Assembly: GCF_011745625.1 (NCBI RefSeq)
Contig: NW_027191495.1
Coordinates: 1 to 64,000, forward strand
Direction: 5' to 3'
Length of the DNA: 64,000 nucleotides
Origin: Cladosporium halotolerans
Taxonomy: Eukaryota
The translations under genes and the position numbers were made by a program. Each line of letters opens with the position of its first letter. Position 1 is the stretch's first letter. Positions 47,366 through 60,891 of this stretch are shown here, piece after piece. The notes beneath the pieces are model-generated. The model had not been told where the DNA came from. It was given only the letters and a program-made list of their open reading frames with translations, and did no database searches.

Positions 47366-48304
47366 TTACCACCCCCTCTTGGCCAGCTTCTGCTCGTCGC
47401 CCATCTTGTCGCAGTTAATACCGACCATGGCCTCGCCGAGACCAATGCTGACCTCGGCCAGCACCTTGGGGTCCTTGTAGTGGGTGGTAGCCTGAACAAT
47501 AGCCTTCGCGCGCTTCGCGGCGTCGCCAGACTTGAAGATGCCGGAGCCGACGAAAACACCGTCGCAGCCCATCTGCATCATGAGCGCAGCGTCAGCGGGC
47601 GTGGCGATGCCGCCAGCGGCGAAATTGACGACCGGCAGGCGGCCCTTGCGCGCGGTCTCCTTGAGCAGAGCGTAGTCGCACTCGAGCTGGCGGGCCATCA
47701 TGCGCAGGTCGTTGTCGGAGGCGGAGCTGGCGCGCGCGATCTCGGCGTTGACGGTCTGCATGTGGCGGACGGCCTCAACGACGTCGCCGGTACCAGCCTC
47801 GCCCTTGGTGCGGATCATGGCGGCGCCCTCGGAGATGCGGCGCAGGGCCTCGCCGAGGTTGCGGCAGCCGCAGACGAAGGGAGTGTTGAAGGCGTTCTTG
47901 TCAACGTGGTTTACGGGGTCGGCAGGCGTGAGCACCTCGCTCTCGTCGATGTAGTCGACGCCGATGCTCTGCAGGATCTGGCACTCGACGATGTGGCCGA
48001 TGCGAGCCTTGGCCATGACGGGGATGGTGACGGCGCGCATGATCTCCTGAATCATGGCCGGGTCGGACATGCGCGCGACGCCGCCCTGCGCGCGGATGTC
48101 GGCGGGCACGCGCTCGAGGGCCATGACGGCGCAGGCGCCGGCCTCCTCAGCGATGCGGGCCTGTTCGGCATTGACGACGTCCATGATCACGCCGCCCTTG
48201 AGCATCTGGGCCAGGCCGGCCTTGACGGCGAAGGAGGACTGCGAGGGTGCGGCGGAGGAGGAGGGCATGGTGGTGGTGGTTCCGTTGGTGCCGTTGGTGG
48301 ACAT
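47366..48304 (-). CDS. PDX1: Pyridoxal 5'-phosphate synthase subunit (Pdx1/Snz1/SOR1)
   Basis: [67 protein letters not shown]. Confidence 0.97.
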
Positions 48305-49555
48305 GGTGAGGACGAGGGAGGAGAGTGAGGAGGAGTGGATGAAGTCTGGCGGCGGTATCGGACGCTGGTGAGTCTGGGCCTCGGCGTCTGGTGAGAGGTG
48401 AGAGGTGGGAGGGTGATTGATGATGATGTGCAATGGGTGTGTTGGAGAGAAGTGCAGGAGGTCAAGAGTGAGAAAGCAGGGTGCTCACGTGTGAGTCAAT
48501 GAGGTGGTGTCAGTTCTACAGAGCGCGCCCTACCGTCGTTAGCCCTGTGTTGCCGCGACTGACCACCTCCGCCGCCTTCTCCAGTCTCGAGTGTCATCGC
48601 CCAAAACTTTTCCGCCGCCGCCCTGCAGGGACCCGTCCGCTCGTCGACCCCTCCTTCCTAGTTCGGACGGGAAGATGCCGAGGAGCTTGGCTCGAAGCGA
48701 CATGTCCTCGCGATTATGGCTGGGCATTGGCAAACGATAACCAAATGCTGACACTCCAAATGCTCCGAGCCACGAAGGCAAACGTCAACACCACCGTTTC
48801 CCATCGCAATTGCTCTCTGAAGACAAACAATACTCCCATGTCTGGAGGCCTTACTTGCTCAGCACGACCGCTTCGATCTCCGTCTAGAATCCACCCGTAC
48901 CCCGCCGATGTCCGCACGGACGGGCAAACGGTCTCTTTACGTGGGACCGATCCGAGCAATCCTCCATCCGGCCCGACCATCTTGCCACCAAGGTGTCTTC
49001 GCTGACTGTTCGAGGTGAAGGGTGCACGGAGTGGAGACGGATGGTCGTCCGACATTCTGAAACCTAATCTTGCAGCGTCTGGCCGCGAACGTAGATGCTT
49101 GCCTATCTATGCCTACTTTTGGCCTGCCGTCCCATGCGTTTGCACGTGAGAATCCTGCCGAAAGTCTGATTGCAAATCTACACGTGTGAGGACGCGTCCA
49201 TTATTCGGATTCGAAGACGACGAGCCGCCTCGAAGTCAGACGTGACACTACCGTAGGTGATCGTCTGGAAACAGGGAAATAGTACCGCTACGTGGCAGAT
49301 CAGCGGTACATCAGATGTCATGGCTTCATGAATTCATCAAATGGTCTGAAAGAGTGGTCATGAAGAAGGCCGCTATTTCATAACTACTCAAAAGCCACGC
49401 AGAATAATATGATGGACCCACGCGACAACTCGAAGCGCCTTCGTGACGACCAAAGAGCTCGGCCATGCCATCAAAAAAGCAAGAATTTTTCAGACATCCG
49501 CATCGAACGGACCAAACACATCAAGACGACCTCGTTGGTAACTACATGAGCATTC

Positions 49556-50407
49556 TCAACTTTCAGGTGCTACCTTCCCGGTTTTCTTGGCTGGTGTTGC
49601 GGAGTTCGAAGCCAGTTGCTCTGGAACCCCGAAGTTGTCTCCGGCGTGAGTAACAGAGTTGCCACCAAGCCTAAGGCCCGTATAGTTGCTGCCGGTCGCG
49701 AGGTGTCCTTCGCCACGAGCAAAAGTCGAGCCAAGGTGGCTCCGCGCATGGTCGGTGGCTTGTGTGCCCGAGTAATCTCTAGATCGGTTGCCCAACAGGG
49801 TTTTTGCTACCTCGGCGAGAGCAGGGTCCCGAGAAGAAACGAGAATTTGCTTGACGGTGTCCTCTGCTTTGAACAGAGCGTCGAGTGCAAGTTTCTCGAG
49901 CTCGGGCCCGATTTCTTTGTTGTGTCCCTCTAGACGACGAACTTGTCGGTGCGCCTCTTTTAAGAACTCACCCAAGCTGTCTTCTGTATAGAACTCCAAG
50001 GGCGTAGGGCGGCGCTCGAAAGTGTATCCGTCCAGGTTGTTGTAATAATCCTCCACGACACCACTGAGAAGCTTGTAGGTGTCAACGTACGGCTTGTCCG
50101 CCTTCTCCAGCCCATTCACTTCTTCCAGCAGATCTTCCTTCGGACTGGGTCCTTTCGTGGCCTTCTTGGCAGCGCTCTCCGCATGCCTCAGTTCTTCTAG
50201 GATTTCTTTGACAGGCTTCGCGTCGATGTCGACCAGACTGAGCTTGTGGCAGGCAAGGCAAAGCTGTAGGATGTGGTGCTCAAGAACTTTGATGCGTACG
50301 GCATCCCTGCCCCAAGTCGACTTGAAGGTTGTACTCAGCTTGAACTTTCCAACTTTCCTGGCGACAGCAATCATCTGACCCAAGTCGGTCTTTGCTTGGT
50401 CTGCCAT
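49556..50407 (-). CDS. Putative HeLo-like protein with a C-terminal HET-s-type two-repeat amyloid motif (HRAM)
   Basis: 283-aa intronless ORF with CACCATGG start context. Helical N-domain. Pseudo-repeats RDYSGTQATDHARSHLGSTF and SNYTGLRLGGNSVTHAGDNF resemble HET-s R1/R2. The HeLo assignment is by eye only. Confidence 0.68.
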   Translation of the reverse strand: MADQAKTDLGQMIAVARKVGKFKLSTTFKSTWGRDAVRIKVLEHHILQLCLACHKLSLVDIDAKPVKEILEELRHAESAAKKATKGPSPKEDLLEEVNGLEKADKPYVDTYKLLSGVVEDYYNNLDGYTFERRPTPLEFYTEDSLGEFLKEAHRQVRRLEGHNKEIGPELEKLALDALFKAEDTVKQILVSSRDPALAEVAKTLLGNRSRDYSGTQATDHARSHLGSTFARGEGHLATGSNYTGLRLGGNSVTHAGDNFGVPEQLASNSATPAKKTGKVAPES

Positions 50408-51318
50408 GGTGCGATTCTTTGCAATATAGGAAGGGCAAGGAGGACGGCGAAAGGGTCAAGGCATTTGGCGTTCTTACACGGTCCGGAAGAGCACCACCAT
50501 TGCATGAAGCGCAAGGCTTGCATCGTGAGGCTTTCAGCCTTGCCTGCAGACAAGGCAACTAATGCAAGCCTCGTTCGCGACTGGCGCAACATCAAGCTCA
50601 GTATCTAGAACTTACCCTGTGCATGAGGATCAGGTGAGTCTCTGGCACATACGAAATGCATGCACCACAGAAGCGCAGAGCGGCTACGAAACATGCAGAA
50701 GGCACCAACTGGCCGAGGAAGGTACTGGAAACGACTCGGACCGGTGAGGTGATGGTTAAGGACTGATACCATTTGACAAGGCACCTTTGCAGACCCCCAT
50801 CACGTCCCGTGTTGCACCTCGGTAAGCCATTTGGACGCGGCCTCTTCAGCCACTGCACGGCTGAGATGCATCGATGCGCTGGCAGGTAGCTTCGCACGAG
50901 GCTGAGAAGCTCCTCGCGTCTTGAAGATTATACTACCTCACTGTGCTATCTGTGGCAGGTCAGAGCTCAAAGCTGACTTGGTAAGACTTCAGCTGTTCAG
51001 TTCATAAGATGTCATTAGAGAATCTGCTCGTGATGTCCAAACAACCAACCAAGGTTGTTCTCGTCCCGTGACACCTGAGCGCAGAGTTTCGGACACCACG
51101 GGACGTGCCGTGAGCTTTGCTCTTCTGCGTAGGTATCTGGTCGGCACCGCATGTTTGGCCGCTTATGCTGGGTCCTTAGAATCGCAACTGGATGTCCTTC
51201 TGTGACGTTGTGGGTCGGAGCTAGACTCGGTGCTTCATATCAAAGGATATGCCGTTTAGCGAGTGGAGCATGAAACACAGTCACGGCTTGCGTTTGGCAC
51301 GCTTGAAGGAAACTGGAC

Positions 51319-52210: not shown

Positions 52211-53966
52211 TCAAGCCTTCGCATCCTCAACATGGACCGAGTGCGTCAGACTCGCCGCCCTTTTCGCTCCCTCTTTACTCACATCATCGATCGTCAGATG
52301 ATTCGCTTTCGCATCCTCAACAAGCGCGTCAAGACGTGACTCTCCGCGACGAGTCTGCCAAGGCCTCGGGCCGCCGTGGGCGAACATCTCCTCGATCTCC
52401 TCGAGAGTCTTGTTGGCCGTCTCGGGGTACGCGAGGTAGAAGTGGGCGGCGGCGAGGAAGCACATGATGCCGAAGATGATGAACATGGCGTATTTGATGT
52501 TGATGAACCCGGGTGGGATGTACAGGCCGAGAGCGAAGCTGCATTTTTGGTCAGCGGGTATAGCTCTTTGAAGTGGGTTTTGGGGAGACCTACTTGAAAA
52601 GCCAGTTCCCAATCGCGGCAATAGACATGCCGACCGCGCGCGTCTCCAGCGACCACACCTCTGCGGCGTAAATCCAGCAGACGGGCGCAAGCGTCATCGC
52701 GTAGACGATGATGAGCATGTAGGAAAAGGCGATCACGGCATTCGCAGGAGAACCGGTGAGTTCAATGGGCACGTTCCTATCGCCTTCGACGCCTCCAGGC
52801 ACGACTTCGCCCATGGATAGGAGGCCGCCCACAATGATGTGGCAGACACCCATCGCAAGAGCGCCGTAGATGAGGAGAGGGCGTCGGCCGACTTTGTCGA
52901 CGTAGAAGAACATGACGCCGGTGAAGATGATGAAGAGTGCGTATTGGACGCCGGAAGCGATCAGCTTGGTGTTTCCCTTGAGGCCGGCCATGGCGAAGAT
53001 GTAGACGACGTACTGCAAAGGTGTCAGCTGGTTCTTGATCAGAAGTCTACCGATGTGGATTCGACGACTCACGTAAGTCATCACGTTAGCGCCACTGTTT
53101 TGTTGCCACATTTGAACCGTAAAACCCGCGAATGTCCGTTTCCACATTCCATTGTAGACGAACTTTCGCCAGCCTGGGGCCGATTGTCTTTCAGCCTGGA
53201 GGGTCATTTGGATATCCTCCCATTCTGCGACAACTAGGGGGTTGTTTCTGTCACCTTGAGCCTGAATGCCAGCTAGGATCGCGACAGCCTCTTCGTTGCG
53301 GTCCTTCATGGCGAGCCAGCGAGGCGACTCCGGCAGGAAAGGCAGACCGATCATCAGAAAGACGCATGGCACGAACTGCATGGCCCAAGCGACGCGGAAA
53401 GAGGCGCTGCCGGGGATGAAGCTGCATCCATAGCCAATGAAGTACATAATGAAGATGCCCCATTCTGACAGCATGTCAGTCTATGTGTCTCAAATTCAAT
53501 CCCGTTGGACATTGACTGTACCAATAGCAAGTTGCTGAATGATAATTAGAGCGCCACGCTTCTCCCTCTTCGCGATCTCAGCTAGGTAAACTGGAACCTG
53601 AGAGCTCGTGATGCCAACAGTGATACCGTTAAGCACGCGGCCAGCGATGAGCATCCCAACACCAGTGACAGCAGCTTGGACCGCGGTGCCAATCAACCAA
53701 GGCACACACGCGATAGCGATGGAGTTGCGTCGCCCGCACCAGTTGGAGATCGGACCAGCAATAACGGAGCCGACAACGGAGCCCGCGGCGAGAGCTGCTC
53801 CAATGGAACCTTGGATGATGCCGGCCGGATTGTCGAAGTAATTTCTGTACTGCGGAGTGCCGATGATGGCGGACATGGAGGAGATGTCGAAGCCGAACAG
53901 AGCGCCGCCGAGTGTCGCGATCACCGCGACGAACCACGGATTGTAGATCTTCGGTAGTTTCATCAT
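52211..53966 (-). CDS. MFS sugar porter (Hgt1-like high-affinity hexose transporter)
   Basis: Three introns. LFGFDISSMS, GRVLNGITVG, VYLAEIA, PESPRWL, QQNSGANV, DKVGRRPLL, YAAEVWS, YPETANKTLEEI. Confidence 0.93.
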
Positions 53967-55403
53967 GTTTTCGGTGGTTGTGCCTGAGAATGGCACCCAG
54001 CAAGTCAACGTATAGTCCCTTTTGGAAATAGTTGGGGTTGGGAATCAGCGCCCATGAGTCGCGACGGAAGGAGGAGCTGTTCTCAGGTACTGGCAGCTGT
54101 CCAGCTGGTTATATGCATGTTGACTCCTCCAGCCATAGCGACACTGCTCCCCCAACTCGGGTAAGTGGAGAGCAACCCCAGATCCGAATCAACCGACCCC
54201 ATGGCTGAGCTCGCTCGCTCGCAGCAGCAGGCGTGCCATGTGCTCGTCCGTCAGACAACTCAAGGATTCCAGCCAAGGATGTGATCCTAAGAGCGTAGCT
54301 GCGTCCAATGTTTATCAAGTAAACGTCTCGCTAGCGCAAAGATAGGCGGGGAATCTCCATCTGGGGTAGAGCGTGTTCCTGGGCAGGGATCTGGCTAGTG
54401 CTGAAGAGGACATGATATGGCAGTCATGTTTGGGAGGCTGCCAGGCTGGTAGGATGCGCGTGGCTTTGACACCCGGCTTGGCTGCTCGAAGGCTCCTCCT
54501 CCTCCTCCTCCGGGACAAGCAGAGGAGCATACAGGCTATATTACTTGCAGGATCCCGACACCGCTTGGCAAGCGTCATGCGTATGAAGAGTTGGCTCCAC
54601 ACCATTGGTCTCGTTGTCCAGTCTGACTGTACGGCGCATGACTTGAGACACGAGTGATGGCGCGGCTCCTCGACAAGGTCAGCTCCGGAGTCATGTGACT
54701 CGTACTGATGTTCCCAGGGACTGTCCGGACAGCATTTGTCGTTGATGACATCCAAGACGAAGACTGATGAGTTTGAAAGGCACGCCCACCGCGCGCTTGG
54801 CCAGGCGTTCGAGTTATAAGCCACCTCGCAGTGACATAGGGGAAGGATCAGTGTGTGATAGAATGAAGGACTTTAGTGAGGTTCAATATATAAGAATAAG
54901 TTAGACCCCAGTAAAAGCACACTGTAAAAGGAAAATAAGCCAAAAAAGCCCTTCCATTCAAACCCAGCGGCGCGAAAAGGATGAGAGACAAGAGCTCACT
55001 CCTCCCCATCTCGATGTTCGCTGCGGCTCAAGAGATGAATGTTGAAGCCATCTCCGTGACGCCTACGCTAAAATTGATCAAAATTCTTTCGATGGAAAAA
55101 AAGTCGTCGACTTCGTTTCGTTGCCCCCTCCCGTGATTTTTTCGTCCAAGCAAAACGCTCGCGCAAAATTTGGTATCTTTTTGTTAAGAGCCCACCCAAG
55201 ATCTATGTTGAATAACGCTTCACATGCCCAGGGTGAGCGCGCTGTGATCGCATTGTTAACGCTCATGCAATCGTGTCTAGGAAGTTGTTGTTGTTGCTGA
55301 TGCTTTTTTGAGGTTGTTTTTTTCCACTTCGTTCAAATCAAACGCCGAGACCATGCCAAAGAGATTAGTGGTATATCATGCTTCAAGACTGAGCTCAAGC
55401 ATT

Positions 55404-56696
55404 CTAGTACTTGAGGGTCTTGGGCTTCTCCCAGCTGAAGTCCTGGTTGGAGAAGTGGCCGTTCTTGGCAGTCTCGCGGTAGATGGGCTTGGCGAGGTCG
55501 AGCTCCTTGACGATGACACCAGGGCGCATGTCGAAGTTGGCGTTGATGATATCAACGAGCTCCTTGGAGCTCTTGTCAGAGGTGCCGTAGGTCTCAACGA
55601 AGACGGAGAGAGGCTCGGCGACACCAATGGCGTAGGAGAACTGGACGAGAGCGCGGCGAGCGAGCTTGGAGTGGACGAGGGACTTGGCGACCCAACGGGC
55701 GAGGTAGGCAGCAGAGCGGTCGACCTTGCTGTAGTCCTTGCCGGAGAAGGCACCACCACCGTGAGCACCCCAGCCACCGTAGGTGTCGACGATGATCTTA
55801 CGGCCAGTCAGACCGGCGTCACCCTGGGGACCGCCAATGATGAAGAGACCAGAGGGTTGAATCTGCGCGGAACATTAGTCAAATGTCAACATGAACAAAA
55901 GCAAAAGGTCACTCACGTGGTAGACGGTCTTGTCGTCAAGGTACTTGGCGGGGATGACCTTCTGGATGATCTTCTCCTTGATCTCCTTGCGGAGCTGCTC
56001 AACACCAATCTCCGGGGCGTGCTGGGCGGAAACGACGACGGTGTCGACGCGCTGGGGAACGACAGCACCGTTGTCGTGAGCGTACTCAACGGTGACCTGG
56101 GTCTTGGTGTCGGGGCGGAGCCAGGGGATGGAGCCGTCGTTGCGGGCATCGGTCATGGCCTTGTTGAGCTTGTGGGCGAGCTGGATGGTGAGAGGGAGGT
56201 ACTCGGGGGTCTCGTCGGTAGCATAGCCGAACATGATACCCTGGTCACCGGCACCAAGCTTCTCAAGAGCCTCCTCGTAGTGAAGACCCTGGGCAATGTC
56301 GGGGCTCTGCTCCTCAATGGCGCACAGAACGTTGCAAGTCTTGTAGTCGAAGCCCTTGTCCGAAGAGTCGTAGCCAATGTCCTTGATGGCGTCACGGACG
56401 ACCTTCTGGTAGTCGACCTTGGTCTTGGTGGTGATCTCGCCGAAGATCATGACCATGCCGGTCTTGGTGGCAGTCTCGCAAGCGACCTTGGAGAGAGGGT
56501 CCTCCGCGAGGCAGGCATCGAGGACGGCGTCGGAAACCTGGTCGGCGATCTTGTCGGGGTGGCCCTGGCCGACGGACTCGGAGGTGAAGCTGGAGAAGCG
56601 GTCGTTAGGCAACGTGGTCGCTTGGGGAGCTCATTTGGCGCTGGTTACTCACAGGAAGGTGTCGGCCTTGCCGTTGACGCCGTTGGTGTGGACCAT
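55404..56696 (-). CDS. SAM2: S-adenosylmethionine synthetase
   Basis: Two introns. [71 protein letters not shown]. Confidence 0.98.
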
Positions 56697-57733
56697 GGTT
56701 GCGGCTTGTGATTGGGGGTGGAGGGGGTGGGAGGGTGGTGAGAGTGACAGTGATGAGAGGGAGGATGGAGGGCTGGAGAGGGTTGTGGTGGTGGTGGAAA
56801 CAATATCAAAGGCAAAGAAAGCAAAAAGGGAAATGCAGCGACATGCCACCAGCCCACTCTGCGCCTGCGCTGCTGCGAACTGCCGACCCTCGCCGCCCCA
56901 AAATTTCTTGTGCCCGTCGGCCAATCACGCCATCCACGCCCCTCACGGAGCACGTCGGGCGTTGAGATTTGAGCCCCTCATGTCTGCTGCCCCTCGTCTC
57001 TGCCCATGCGCCGAACCCTTTGCCCGCGGGTTAATTCACTTCGCATTTCCACATTCATCCCATCTGAACGCGTTCAATCACGGCACATCCAGCACAAATG
57101 CTTGCAGAGTCACGTGGCATCCGCATTGGGCCGCCATGGAATGCAGACAGACTAGCGCCAGCAGCGTTTGCAGGGGCGCTCGGTTACAGCAGTGATTCCT
57201 CCTCTCAACCGTTGCCAACTCGCCGATGTTCCCGAGAAAATCGCATCTCGGTATAAGCCCAAGTCGTACGTCTCCGCAATCGCTTGTGGAGTCGTACCAC
57301 ACTATCCATACATCATTACTTCGGCCTTGGCATTTGCGTCCATCCTTTCGTCTTCGTCAGACATTGGTGCAAGCTGTACACAGGTTATCAGATGATGTTC
57401 CGGAAATACCGGATGCCATGTTCCTGTGCAGATTGATACAAGGTTAAGGCGAAGGTTTCTAAACGAATAGCTACTCATGACGTGAGATTCGCTTACGCAC
57501 CCAAGTCGGGGAGCTTTCATCAATGGACTCAAAGTCAAGTTTGGCAGCCCCAAATGCAGCTATATACAAAAACAATGCTATTTGCACGGGTATCTTGTAT
57601 GACAATGATAGACACCAAACGCTCAAACAATGCGAGCAAGCAAGACCTCATAAGGTCGACATGTACTCTAGCGCCTCACTCCCCAGCCCATGCACGCACT
57701 GCAAGCAACAATGCATCATCGCACACCACATAC

Positions 57734-58729: not shown

Positions 58730-59028
58730 GGTTTTGGTTGTTGCCTCCAGTGCTCTACTCTTATTTTTCTTTTTCTTCGTTTGGAAGGTTTTGTTGCTTG
58801 GATTAATTTTGAGACATGCGCTGTAGGACCGCGGCAGCCGAGATGGCTGCAAGCATTGGGGCTCCCTGAAGAGGAGGCACTGTGATTGGCTTTCAAAGTC
58901 GACCCGCAACGCGCGCGCGCGCGCATCGAAACGCGTGCACGTCATAGCTCTCGATGGATTCTAGTAGGCGAAAGATAATCTGTCATTGACTACAGCGCAC
59001 CACGATATTCCTTACACACCAGCGCATC

Positions 59029-60603
59029 ATGGTCGCAAAGAAACAAGATCAAGGCCTCAGCGAATATGAGCTCGCGCGACAAGAGAAGATCGCGAAGAAC
59101 CAGGCCCTTCTTAAGCAGCTGCAGCTCGATGCGCAGCAGACGGGCATAGGCTCGAAGCCCAAACCGTCCTCTACGGCTGGGCAGAAGCGCAAGAAACCGC
59201 AAGAGAAGAAAGTGAAAGAAGAGATCGTGCCTCGGAGATCATCTAGAAGACTTCAGGGCATTGTCGCAGACTCGGAAGTCGCACGACAGAAGCAAGAAGA
59301 GGAGGCGGAGGCGTTTCAGGAACAGCAGAGGGCGAAGCGCATGCGAGTGAGCGACGATATCAACCTCGTGGATGCGGTTGTCAATGGAAGGACTTGGAAT
59401 AAGGCGGGCAACTGGCTCACTGCTGCCGGGCCGGCCAACCCGGGAGAGCGGACGTTTGACGTACAGGATGTCAAGGACACAACGGACAAAGAGCTACGGG
59501 AGATACGTGAGCGCATGAGCAACTTGCAGCTTTGGGAGGGAGCGGAGCCGAATAGGATCAAGATCACTCCAGAGCGGATATACAGTCTTGGCTTGCATCC
59601 GACCAAAGACAAGGCGCTCGTATTTGCTGGTGACAAGTTGGGCAGCCTCGGACTGTTTGACGGGTCACAGACAGCACCAGAACAGATCAAGCAGGAGGCC
59701 GACGATGCTGATGAAGATGGAGACGAAGATTTCGAGCCAGCGATCACAACCTTCAAGATCCACACAAGAACAATCAGTGCTTTCCAGTTCGCACCACATG
59801 ACCAGAACGCCTTGTTCTCCGCTTCGTACGACAGCTCGATACGGAAACTCGACCTCGCAGAAGGCAAAGCAATTGAAGTCTACGCACCCGAAGACAAAGC
59901 GGCCGACGACCCCATCTCCGGCGTCGAAGTCAGCCGCCTAGATCCAAACATGCTCCATTTCGCGACCCTCAACGGCCAGTTCGGCATCAAAGACATGCGA
60001 GTGCCCACCCACGAAACCATCGAACTCTTCCAGCTGTCCGAAAAGAAAATTGGCGGCTTCTCCCTGCACCCGGCGCAACCGCACCTGGTCGCAACCGCCT
60101 CTCTGGACCGCACGATGAAACTGTTCGACCTGCGCAAGATCTCCGGCAAAGGCGCGAGCCGCATGCCGTCCCTTCTCGGCGAGCACAGCAGCAGCCTCAG
60201 CGTCAGCCACGCCGCGTTTAACGCCGCGGGGCAAGTCGCGACGGCCTCGTACGACGACACGGTGAAAGTCTACGACTTCTCGTCGCTCACGGACACCAAG
60301 CCGGGCGCGCAGCTGTCGGAAGCCGAGATGGAGCCCAGCACGGTGATCCCGCACAACAACCAGACGGGCCGGTGGGTCACGATCTTGCGCGCGCAGTGGC
60401 AGATGCAGCCGCAGGATGAGGTGCAGCGGTTTGTGATCGGGAATATGAACAGGTTTGTTGACGTGTACACGAGCAAGGGGCAGCAGTTGGCGCAGTTGGG
60501 CGGCGATGGGATTACTGCGGTGCCCGCCGTGGCGAAGTTTCACGATTCGATGGATTGGATTGCGGCGGGCACGGCGAGCGGGAAGTTGTGTCTTTGGCAG
60601 TAA
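59029..60603 (+). CDS. CMR1: WD40 DNA-damage-binding protein Cmr1 (WDR76 homologue)
   Basis: LSEYELARQEKIAKNQALL, RRSSRRL, KITPERIY, FAGDKLG, HNNQTGRW, IGNMNR, TAVPAV, SGKLCLW. Confidence 0.93.
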   Translation: MVAKKQDQGLSEYELARQEKIAKNQALLKQLQLDAQQTGIGSKPKPSSTAGQKRKKPQEKKVKEEIVPRRSSRRLQGIVADSEVARQKQEEEAEAFQEQQRAKRMRVSDDINLVDAVVNGRTWNKAGNWLTAAGPANPGERTFDVQDVKDTTDKELREIRERMSNLQLWEGAEPNRIKITPERIYSLGLHPTKDKALVFAGDKLGSLGLFDGSQTAPEQIKQEADDADEDGDEDFEPAITTFKIHTRTISAFQFAPHDQNALFSASYDSSIRKLDLAEGKAIEVYAPEDKAADDPISGVEVSRLDPNMLHFATLNGQFGIKDMRVPTHETIELFQLSEKKIGGFSLHPAQPHLVATASLDRTMKLFDLRKISGKGASRMPSLLGEHSSSLSVSHAAFNAAGQVATASYDDTVKVYDFSSLTDTKPGAQLSEAEMEPSTVIPHNNQTGRWVTILRAQWQMQPQDEVQRFVIGNMNRFVDVYTSKGQQLAQLGGDGITAVPAVAKFHDSMDWIAAGTASGKLCLWQ

Positions 60604-60891
60604 AGAATCCGATCGTATTCCGAGTTCAGGGATTGAGGTATTCTGGTGAGATTTGGACATTCAAGCATGGCGTCAAGGTAGGGTGTCGGTTTAAGGGTCA
60701 AGAGAGTGAATCGTATGATTATCATTGTATTGTTATCCGGGTTGAAACCCTTGTCGTTACCATTCTATGAGCTTTCCAATAGAAATGCTATTGTACAGTA
60801 TGTACCTCGCTAATGCGCACTTTCTGTGCGAAATCATCTACCGACTTCCTGATTCCTCCATTCCACACCTAAGCAGCTCCCTCCGAGCTGC

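Follow-up and report, generated by a model that had tools for sequence, protein, structure and literature searches.

A divergent HET-S-family protein of Cladosporium halotolerans with a polar, amphipathic first helix and two predicted HRAM-type repeats

In HET-S of Podospora anserina, a HeLo domain (PDB 2WVN/2WVO) is followed by a prion-forming domain (residues 218-289), which contains two pseudo-repeats of roughly 21 amino acids, each with a glycine at position 19, and a short glycine-containing loop between them. HET-S has an adjacent nwd2-like nucleotide-binding oligomerization domain-like receptor (NLR). In PMC3531502, residues 1-34 of HET-S are described as a predicted transmembrane segment that is expelled into the membrane, and TMPRED is reported to find such an N-terminal helix almost throughout a set of more than 100 HeLo domains. 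A 2025 review likewise presents HeLo and CC-RPW8 domains as dependent on their extreme N-terminal helix (PMC12881547). The repeats are called HET-s-related amyloid motifs (HRAMs): two copies of about 21 amino acids lie in the last 80 residues, separated by a loop of 6-18 amino acids, with glycine at position 19, hydrophobic residues at positions 5, 8, 10, 16 and 18, and R or K at position 15 (Daskalov, Dyrka and Saupe 2015; PMC4518210). Here we describe P0001, a gene in a stretch of 64,000 nucleotides of Cladosporium halotolerans (assembly GCF_011745625.1, contig NW_027191495.1, positions 1 to 64,000; hereafter the window). Its product is predicted to share the two-part architecture of HET-S and to differ from it in the chemistry of the first helix.

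The evidence given below supports P0001 as a divergent member of the HET-S family, in which a HeLo domain is joined directly to two HRAM-type repeats (r1 and r2; see Table 1 for all positions). The open reading frame (ORF) claimed by the original prediction was borne out as an ATG-to-stop frame of 283 amino acids, a length similar to the 289 amino acids of HET-S. The start codon stands in the context caccATGgc, with an in-frame stop 16 codons upstream. In public data the frame is present as four near-identical variants of 283 amino acids (98% identical).

We searched 1.84 billion cluster representatives exhaustively with phmmer and found six relatives at an expectation value (E) up to 1e-3. 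These are P0002, a 98% twin; P0003 (37% identity, E 2e-38); P0004 (29% identity, E 1e-16); P0005 and P0006 (25-28% identity, E 4e-7 and 2e-4); and P0007, which has 136 amino acids and matches in the repeats only. A profile search added P0008, P0009, P0010 and P0011. The Pfam HeLo family (PF14479) scores 81-95 bits in P0005, P0006, P0008, P0009, P0010 and P0011, from profile position 6 or 15 onward, and we refer to these six as canonical relatives. In P0004 it scores 28.2 bits against a cut-off of 23.2, over profile positions 24-205 only. As far as the sequences seen here go, P0001 belongs to a small clade of three lineages at 29-37% identity. When metagenome contigs were searched with P0003, there were 330 pattern matches, none of which was confirmed. 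The ESM Atlas gave no usable feature match for P0001, and the structural neighbors found there reached a template-modeling (TM) score of 0.35 or less on a model with a predicted local distance difference test (pLDDT) value of 0.40. Three alignments were used in the comparisons that follow: A1 (7 sequences, including canonical HeLo proteins), A2 (the clade only: P0001, P0002, P0003 and P0004) and A3 (five canonical relatives).

The N-terminal domain of P0001 is, by profile and model comparison, a true HeLo fold and a HeLo homologue. The A1 profile matches the HET-S N-domain with an E of 1e-21. The A2 profile, built from the clade alone, matches the HET-S/HET-s chains 2wvo, 2wvq and 2wvn at E 2.3e-4 to 3.7e-4, with positions 22-201 aligned to positions 28-215 of the chain. 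When A2 and A3 are compared with hhalign, the probability is 99.7% (E 9e-26, 245 columns), and HeLo, r1 and r2 are all in register. The AlphaFold2 (AF2) model of P0001 made from A1 (pLDDT 69.7, predicted TM score 0.66) is helical over residues 1-206. In a Foldseek search of the PDB with this model, the best four matches are all HET-s/HET-S N-domains (E 3e-5 to 4e-4, TM 0.74-0.78, root-mean-square deviation [rmsd] 2.7-3.0), and the fifth has an E of 0.37 and a TM of 0.16. All-against-all structural alignment with VIA-align gives the same picture: 2wvo_A has a Z score of 22.9 (rmsd 2.7, 197 residues aligned, model residues 3-209 against chain residues 10-223), and the next chain has a Z score of 8.2. 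The identity between P0001 and HET-S in the structural alignment is about 16-18%. The original prediction had called this domain HeLo-like and had proposed a structure prediction as a check. The call stands on both the structural match to 2wvo_A and the A2 profile, but the pairing of a GRD motif in P0001 with the GRD of HET-S, which had been offered in its favor, does not. In the profile alignments G33-R34-D35 of P0001 lies opposite E39-R40-C41 of HET-S, and the proposed pairing is four residues out of register. Since the domain is HeLo, the suggestion of a new effector domain is rejected. The two other functions suggested there, a non-toxic prion or decoy and a trans-activated effector, both stay candidates.

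We next consider helix 1, where the clade departs from other HeLo proteins. The helix is retained in P0001 and pairs structurally with the corresponding helix of HET-S; its chemistry alone differs. We compared the stretch of 24 N-terminal residues that leads to the conserved Q/K-L in the "QLG" box and took the best 19-residue Kyte-Doolittle mean within them; P0006 was left out because it is N-terminally short. The usual threshold for a membrane-spanning helix on this scale is about 1.6. The best mean is 0.02 in P0001, 0.64 in P0003 and 0.05 in P0004, compared to 1.58-1.91 in the five complete canonical relatives (P0005, P0008, P0009, P0010, P0011). Charged residues number 7, 4 and 4 in P0001, P0003 and P0004 and 1-2 in the canonical five, and the hydrophobic moment is 0.95, 0.88 and 1.10 as against 0.35-0.46. 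The N-terminus is thus polar rather than hydrophobic, as had been noted at the outset, and the same holds for 3 of 3 lineages of a clade whose members are so far apart. The canonical relatives are homologous to P0001 over HeLo, r1 and r2 and share the consensus of the two repeats with it; what the P0001 clade lacks is their hydrophobic helix 1. We conclude from the sequences compared that, in this clade, transmembrane-type hydrophobicity has been lost from helix 1, which has turned into an amphipathic helix with charged residues. A limited search of the open-access literature, as far as its text was available, brought up no account of a clade that combines HeLo and HRAMs but lacks the hydrophobic helix.

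The C-terminus of P0001 is assigned to two HRAM-type repeats in register with those of canonical HeLo proteins. We used the register of 21/22 positions with glycine at position 19 (PMC4518210). The layout in P0001 agrees with that of described HRAMs: r1 occupies residues 208-228 and r2 residues 238-258, the loop is 9 amino acids long, and all of this falls in the last 76 residues. At positions 5, 8, 10, 16 and 18, r1 has Y, T, A, S and L (with R at position 15) and r2 has Y, L, L, T and A (with V at position 15). The two repeats share 5 of 22 residues and score 28 with BLOSUM62, a value that 3 of 20,000 shuffles attained, so that their likeness exceeds chance. We also built hidden Markov models (HMMs) of the repeats from seven relatives (the six canonical HeLo proteins and the HeLo-less P0007), leaving P0001 out, and searched the 1488 six-frame segments of the window. 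The two repeats of P0001 are the sole significant matches: r2 has an E of 5.3e-6 (1.5e-8 with the model of r2 only) and r1 an E of 0.014 (0.0056 with the model of r1 only), and the next best segment has an E of 0.43. One other candidate for a motif copy, at 60462-60767 (+), was rejected; it has an E of 0.23 and 8 bits with the r2 model, and its sequence on reading is unlike the motif. The original prediction had described two pseudo-repeats of 20 amino acids with a 10-amino-acid linker, and they lie exactly where it placed them (residues 210-229 and 240-259, nucleotides 49780-49631). The HET-s repeats quoted there for comparison are also correct (rows 2RNM and HET-s of supplement file 2 of PMC4518210). 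The tail it noted after the second repeat is present, but with 24 amino acids, not 23.

The repeats are more conserved than the rest of the protein. In r2, 12 of 22 residues are identical to both P0003 and P0004, compared to 66 of 187 and 41 of 187 in the HeLo part, and G249, A255 and G256 are invariant in seven relatives. The four 98%-identical variants differ at 13 sites: the HeLo domain has 9 of them, helix 1 has 3 and the loop has 1, and r1, r2 and the tail are free of differences. P0003 and P0004 end 3 and 2 residues past r2, and the tails of the other relatives vary in length and sequence. The 20 repeats of ten family members were compared. All 20 have an aromatic residue at position 5, H or Q at position 17 and G at position 19. 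Position 8 is I, L or M in 18 of 20 (the exceptions are T in r1 of P0001 and A in r1 of P0003), and position 22 is aromatic in 18 of 20. Position 12 is G or D with two exceptions, position 14 holds one of A, S, T and V and position 20 one of S, N and D, and throughout the family the residue at position 16 is small or polar. Position 18 is hydrophobic in r1 and always A in r2.

How do these repeats compare with the known ones? With the HET-s repeats they share 4 of 21 residues each, aligned by eye; P0001 has an aromatic residue at position 5 and lacks the Asn at position 3. They also resemble those of other HRAM-bearing HeLo proteins (PMC4518210), notably the HRAM3-looking entries, which also have a double motif with G19 in the last 80 amino acids. 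Both have an aromatic or hydrophobic residue at position 5 and tend to have hydrophobic residues at positions 8 and 10 and the pattern A/S-R/K-x-H/Q-x-G-D/N at positions 14-20, from which T at position 8 in r1 of P0001 and V at position 15 in its r2 depart. The likest rows found by string search are a Cladosporium fulvum protein whose r1 ends in GGNARIQAGDE and entries with ..SRVHYGN.. repeats. However, the P0001 family lacks the conserved His at position 3 that marks HRAM3 (PMC4518210), and its own r2 hallmarks (GGNS, AGDN, AGNNY) occur, again by string search, in 0 of the 155 proteins in supplement file 2 of that paper. We regard the repeats of this family as a putative HRAM sub-type that, compared by string search, is close to absent from the 2015 set. 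Twelve five-residue words of the r2 type had no match in 11 of the 13 supplement files of PMC9815663, which seem to hold little searchable sequence. The Pfam family HET-s_218-289 (PF11558) has no match in P0001 and, among nine relatives, appears only in P0006 below threshold (13.4 vs 32.2 bits). It is matched by only 38 of 155 double-HRAM proteins (PMC4518210) and so is a loose criterion.

Two of the relatives carry the motif in other surroundings. P0007, on a metagenome contig of 1950 bases, has both repeats, with an r2 nearly identical to that of P0001, and no HeLo domain; its repeats are preceded by a stretch rich in Y, Q, N, P and G. P0007 may be a fragment, or else a prion-type protein that has no HeLo domain. 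P0008 (KAM0720993.1, Cladosporium fusiforme, 525 amino acids) has an N-terminal extension of about 220 amino acids before a canonical HeLo domain and double repeat. At residues of about 50-71, far upstream of the HeLo domain, this extension has a third motif that is HRAM3-looking (H at position 3, ..SSRAHYGDNY). Either the P0008 gene model is a fusion or the protein has three motifs in its architecture.

Table 1. Positions of P0001, its predicted parts and its neighboring genes in the window (residues are numbered in the P0001 product)
Feature	Residues	Position	Strand	Remarks
P0001 coding sequence		49556-50407	-	complete, intronless-looking; 283 codons and stop, ATG-to-stop frame
Predicted HeLo-fold domain	1-206	49790-50407	-	model, structural and profile matches to HET-S
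Helix 1	2-20	50348-50404	-	helix in the AF2 model; polar, amphipathic instead of hydrophobic transmembrane-type
Repeat r1	208-229	49721-49786	-	G226 is motif position 19, invariant in all 7 aligned relatives
Inter-repeat loop	230-237	49697-49720	-	9 amino acids in the 21-residue register; 2 glycines
Repeat r2	238-259	49631-49696	-	G256 is motif position 19; best-conserved part of P0001
C-terminal tail	260-283	49559-49630	-	24 amino acids; not conserved
SOR/SNZ (PDX1-type) gene		47366-48484	-	neighbor of P0001, downstream, co-oriented
Sugar transporter gene		about 52214-54044	-	neighbor on the other side of P0001

For proteins of this type, the gene next door usually encodes an NLR with a single matching motif (r0) at its N-terminus. 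Unlike HET-S, P0001 has no adjacent NLR within the window: Pfam finds a NACHT, NB-ARC or other STAND (signal transduction ATPases with numerous domains) NTPase in 0 of 195 stop-to-stop ORFs of at least 110 amino acids, a result that holds within the reach of the window (-49 kb and +14 kb from P0001). The WD40 protein at 58990-60603 has WD40-type Pfam matches only. We also examined long proteins (497-2000 amino acids) that share words with residues 205-264; none of the 21 candidates matches at E up to 10, which is weak evidence. The original prediction had presented the gene as an orphan. This agrees with what the 64-kb window contains, but the situation is less unusual than was implied, as 98 of 155 double-HRAM proteins have an adjacent NLR and 57 of 155 have none (PMC4518210). 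In addition, PMC9815663 describes genome-wide co-occurrence of the motifs of non-adjacent NLRs and effectors, most often in the HRAM3-like NLR12 class. Together, these two findings make an unlinked partner plausible.

For P0001 we infer amyloid formation, a templating partner, coupling of the two domains and membrane action; partner templating and HeLo unfolding are taken from homology with HET-S/NWD2. The partner, encoded outside the window, would most likely be an NLR with one N-terminal copy of the motif, which would oligomerize and template r1 and r2 into a two-rung beta-solenoid. In P0001, r1 follows immediately on the last HeLo helix, and G226 of r1 comes 32 residues after D194, the conserved Asp in the "DPxLAE" helix, compared to 34 residues in HET-S. 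With so tight a link, amyloid folding would be expected to destabilize or unfold part of the HeLo domain, as in HET-S. The element released would not be membrane-spanning. We consider it most probable that HeLo domains clustered along a fibril would still act on membranes through many amphipathic helices together, in the way of MLKL four-helix bundles and plant coiled-coil (CC) resistosomes. PMC12881547 describes MLKL and the plant CC and CC-RPW8 domains as helical-bundle executioners that act via an N-terminal amphipathic helix after oligomerization. The likeness is one of analogy: what activates MLKL and CC domains is phosphorylation or NLR assembly and not an amyloid repeat, and the P0001 model has Z scores of 7.2 with Rx-CC, 6.3 with MLKL (4btf) and 5.2 with the CC-R domain of NRG1.1, values that are common for helical bundles and denote no specific relation. 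We give the whole chain, ending in a membrane-active, oligomer-dependent amphipathic helix of the MLKL/CC resistosome manner, a probability of about one half. An active HeLo output is ranked first because the full-length HeLo domain has been kept over deep divergence although a repeats-only protein, P0007, exists.

Several observations weigh against this reading. Pfam finds 0 families in P0001 at E up to 10, so that neither HeLo nor HET-s_218-289 is matched; of the profile comparisons proposed in the original prediction, these two came out negative and HeLo homology emerged from the A1 and A2 profiles and from profile-profile alignment. With P0001 alone as the query against the PDB, phmmer returns no HET-s chain, only enterovirus VP4 noise (E 0.56-0.89). 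The AF2 model made from A2, the clade alone, is unusable (pLDDT 41.7), and the confident model leans on the canonical HeLo sequences in A1. The only computed hint of a beta-solenoid, the strands that AF2 places at the same motif positions (3-6 and 16-18) in both repeats, lies in a region with a pLDDT below 50 (low confidence). T and S stand in r1 at positions 8 and 16, which are usually hydrophobic in HRAMs, and r2 has V instead of R/K at position 15. Pairs of opposite charge between r1 and r2 are absent from P0001 at positions 4, 6, 7, 11, 12 and 13; such complementary pairs occur in some relatives, e.g., P0005 at position 6. No third copy of the motif (r0) was found with the repeat HMMs among the 1488 segments of the window, which adds to the absence of an NLR there. 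A basic lipid-binding face of helix 1 is not conserved, as its net charge differs from lineage to lineage (+3, +2 and 0). Finally, the mutations D23A and F25S in HET-S, which remove the predicted transmembrane helix, abolish toxicity (PMC3531502).

This last point favors a reading in which the HeLo domain of P0001 is non-lytic because helix 1 is unable to enter a membrane. P0001 might be a fixed natural "HET-s-like" form, whose repeats form and propagate the beta-solenoid amyloid and which serves as a non-toxic prion, as an amyloid relay or adaptor, or, by tuning an NLR pathway, as a decoy or sink. If other strains have a lytic paralogue with the same motif, it could also be an incompatibility partner. 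In the same source, the D23A and F25S proteins are said to show the non-toxic HET-s phenotype, and the authors stress how easily HET-S changes into a non-toxic prion. The charge and low hydropathy of helix 1 fit such a form, as does the stronger conservation of the repeats than of the HeLo part, the pattern to be expected of a protein whose function resides in its amyloid part. Other fungi have canonical HeLo proteins with this repeat subtype (P0005, P0006, P0008, P0009, P0010, P0011). On the other hand, a full-length HeLo domain kept in lineages that are so divergent is hard to explain if only the repeats matter, and P0007 shows that the domain can be absent. The amphipathic pattern of helix 1 is itself conserved. 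No lytic paralogue is known from this genome, of which the 64-kb window was examined. We rank this explanation second, as a tentative one that is less probable than an active HeLo output.

The gene might instead be a decaying relic of the HET-S type, with leftover repeats, a lost partner NLR and no present role in amyloid signaling. No partner was found in the window, r1 is degenerate at the core positions 8 and 16, and the GC content at third codon positions (GC3) of P0001 is 0.60, at the low end of the 0.63-0.90 of neighboring genes. However, the four variants have an intact frame, as has a relative with ~95% DNA identity, and the ORF contains no indel; homologues of full length persist in lineages of 29-37% identity, where r2 is 55% identical; and the repeats contain none of the 13 polymorphic sites. 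We consider decay very unlikely. Least probable of all is a mis-called start, with an ordinary HET-S-type pore former restored by a hydrophobic N-terminal exon upstream: short 5' exons are frequent in fungal genes, but the model already includes helix 1 (residues 3-209 pair with HET-S 10-223), P0003 (from an internal Met) and P0004 begin at the same place with an MA(D/S) start and equally polar helices, an in-frame stop stands only 16 codons upstream, and, as a weak hint, contigs stop at 50445 in the sequencing run X2 and at 50406 in X3, whereas X1 goes on.

We also looked at sequencing runs that contain the P0001 stretch. In the search with 49300-50700, no run recorded as RNA contains it; the kinds of the runs X1, X2 and X3 are guessed. 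Contigs of X1, X2, X3 and X9 were placed on the stretch, and parts that they leave uncovered carry no weight. The contigs of X2 are confined to 49374-50445, and X1 extends farther. A contig of X3, ~95% identical, spans 48900-50406 without a joint, and its 8 gap letters are all outside the P0001 ORF. This contig (2698 bases, depth 474 vs 3-6 upstream) begins at 50406, in the region of the P0001 ATG, and runs ~1.2 kb beyond 48900 toward the co-oriented SOR/SNZ gene. Provided that the run is RNA, P0001 and SOR/SNZ may have overlapping or read-through transcripts in a relative. At most, the jointless X3 contig and the ends of the X2 and X3 contigs weakly suggest an unspliced transcript whose start is a short way upstream of the P0001 ATG. 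Runs labeled with ~12 coded organisms, and metagenomes from soil, mud and plants, contain between 0.11 and 0.39 of the words of 49300-50700. The source fungus, or close relatives of it, may therefore be widespread or occur as frequent passengers in other samples.

The surroundings of P0001 are housekeeping genes. The ORFs of the window are fungal by their Pfam matches, which include STE12, a fungal Zn-cluster transcription-factor domain, a fungal rhodopsin domain, ORC2, ORC6 and an importin. The GC3 of P0001 is near that of the importin (0.63) and MINDY (0.64) ORFs and therefore gives no hint of foreign origin. There are no tRNA genes in the 64-kb window. An ORF of 476 amino acids at 55281-56711 (+), which has no Pfam match, runs antisense to exons for S-adenosylmethionine synthetase (55407-56630, -) and is probably not a gene but a shadow frame rich in GC.

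The architecture itself, a HeLo domain under presumed amyloid control, is already known; what is new is a version without the transmembrane-type helix. The P0001 clade is invisible to Pfam and is consequently missed in domain-based surveys of fungal amyloid signaling. A possible, though doubtful, interpretation is that the three lineages represent an old, selectively maintained clade in which the membrane-spanning helix was given up for good and whose proteins are heritable amyloid switches, relays or decoys in NLR signaling, not killers. If true, this would be the first case outside Podospora of a prion-only HeLo protein as a conserved, species-wide form, i.e., the fixed counterpart of the non-toxic HET-s allele. 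The model now in use for HET-S-type cell death depends on a transmembrane-type helix at the N-terminus. The P0001 clade keeps the predicted HeLo fold, the tight link to the repeats and the conserved repeats themselves, yet has a charged amphipathic helix 1, and thus may serve as a natural test of the role of this helix. Either there is a second, MLKL/CC-like mode in which HeLo domains act on membranes, or evolution has repeatedly kept a non-lytic, prion-only HeLo protein.

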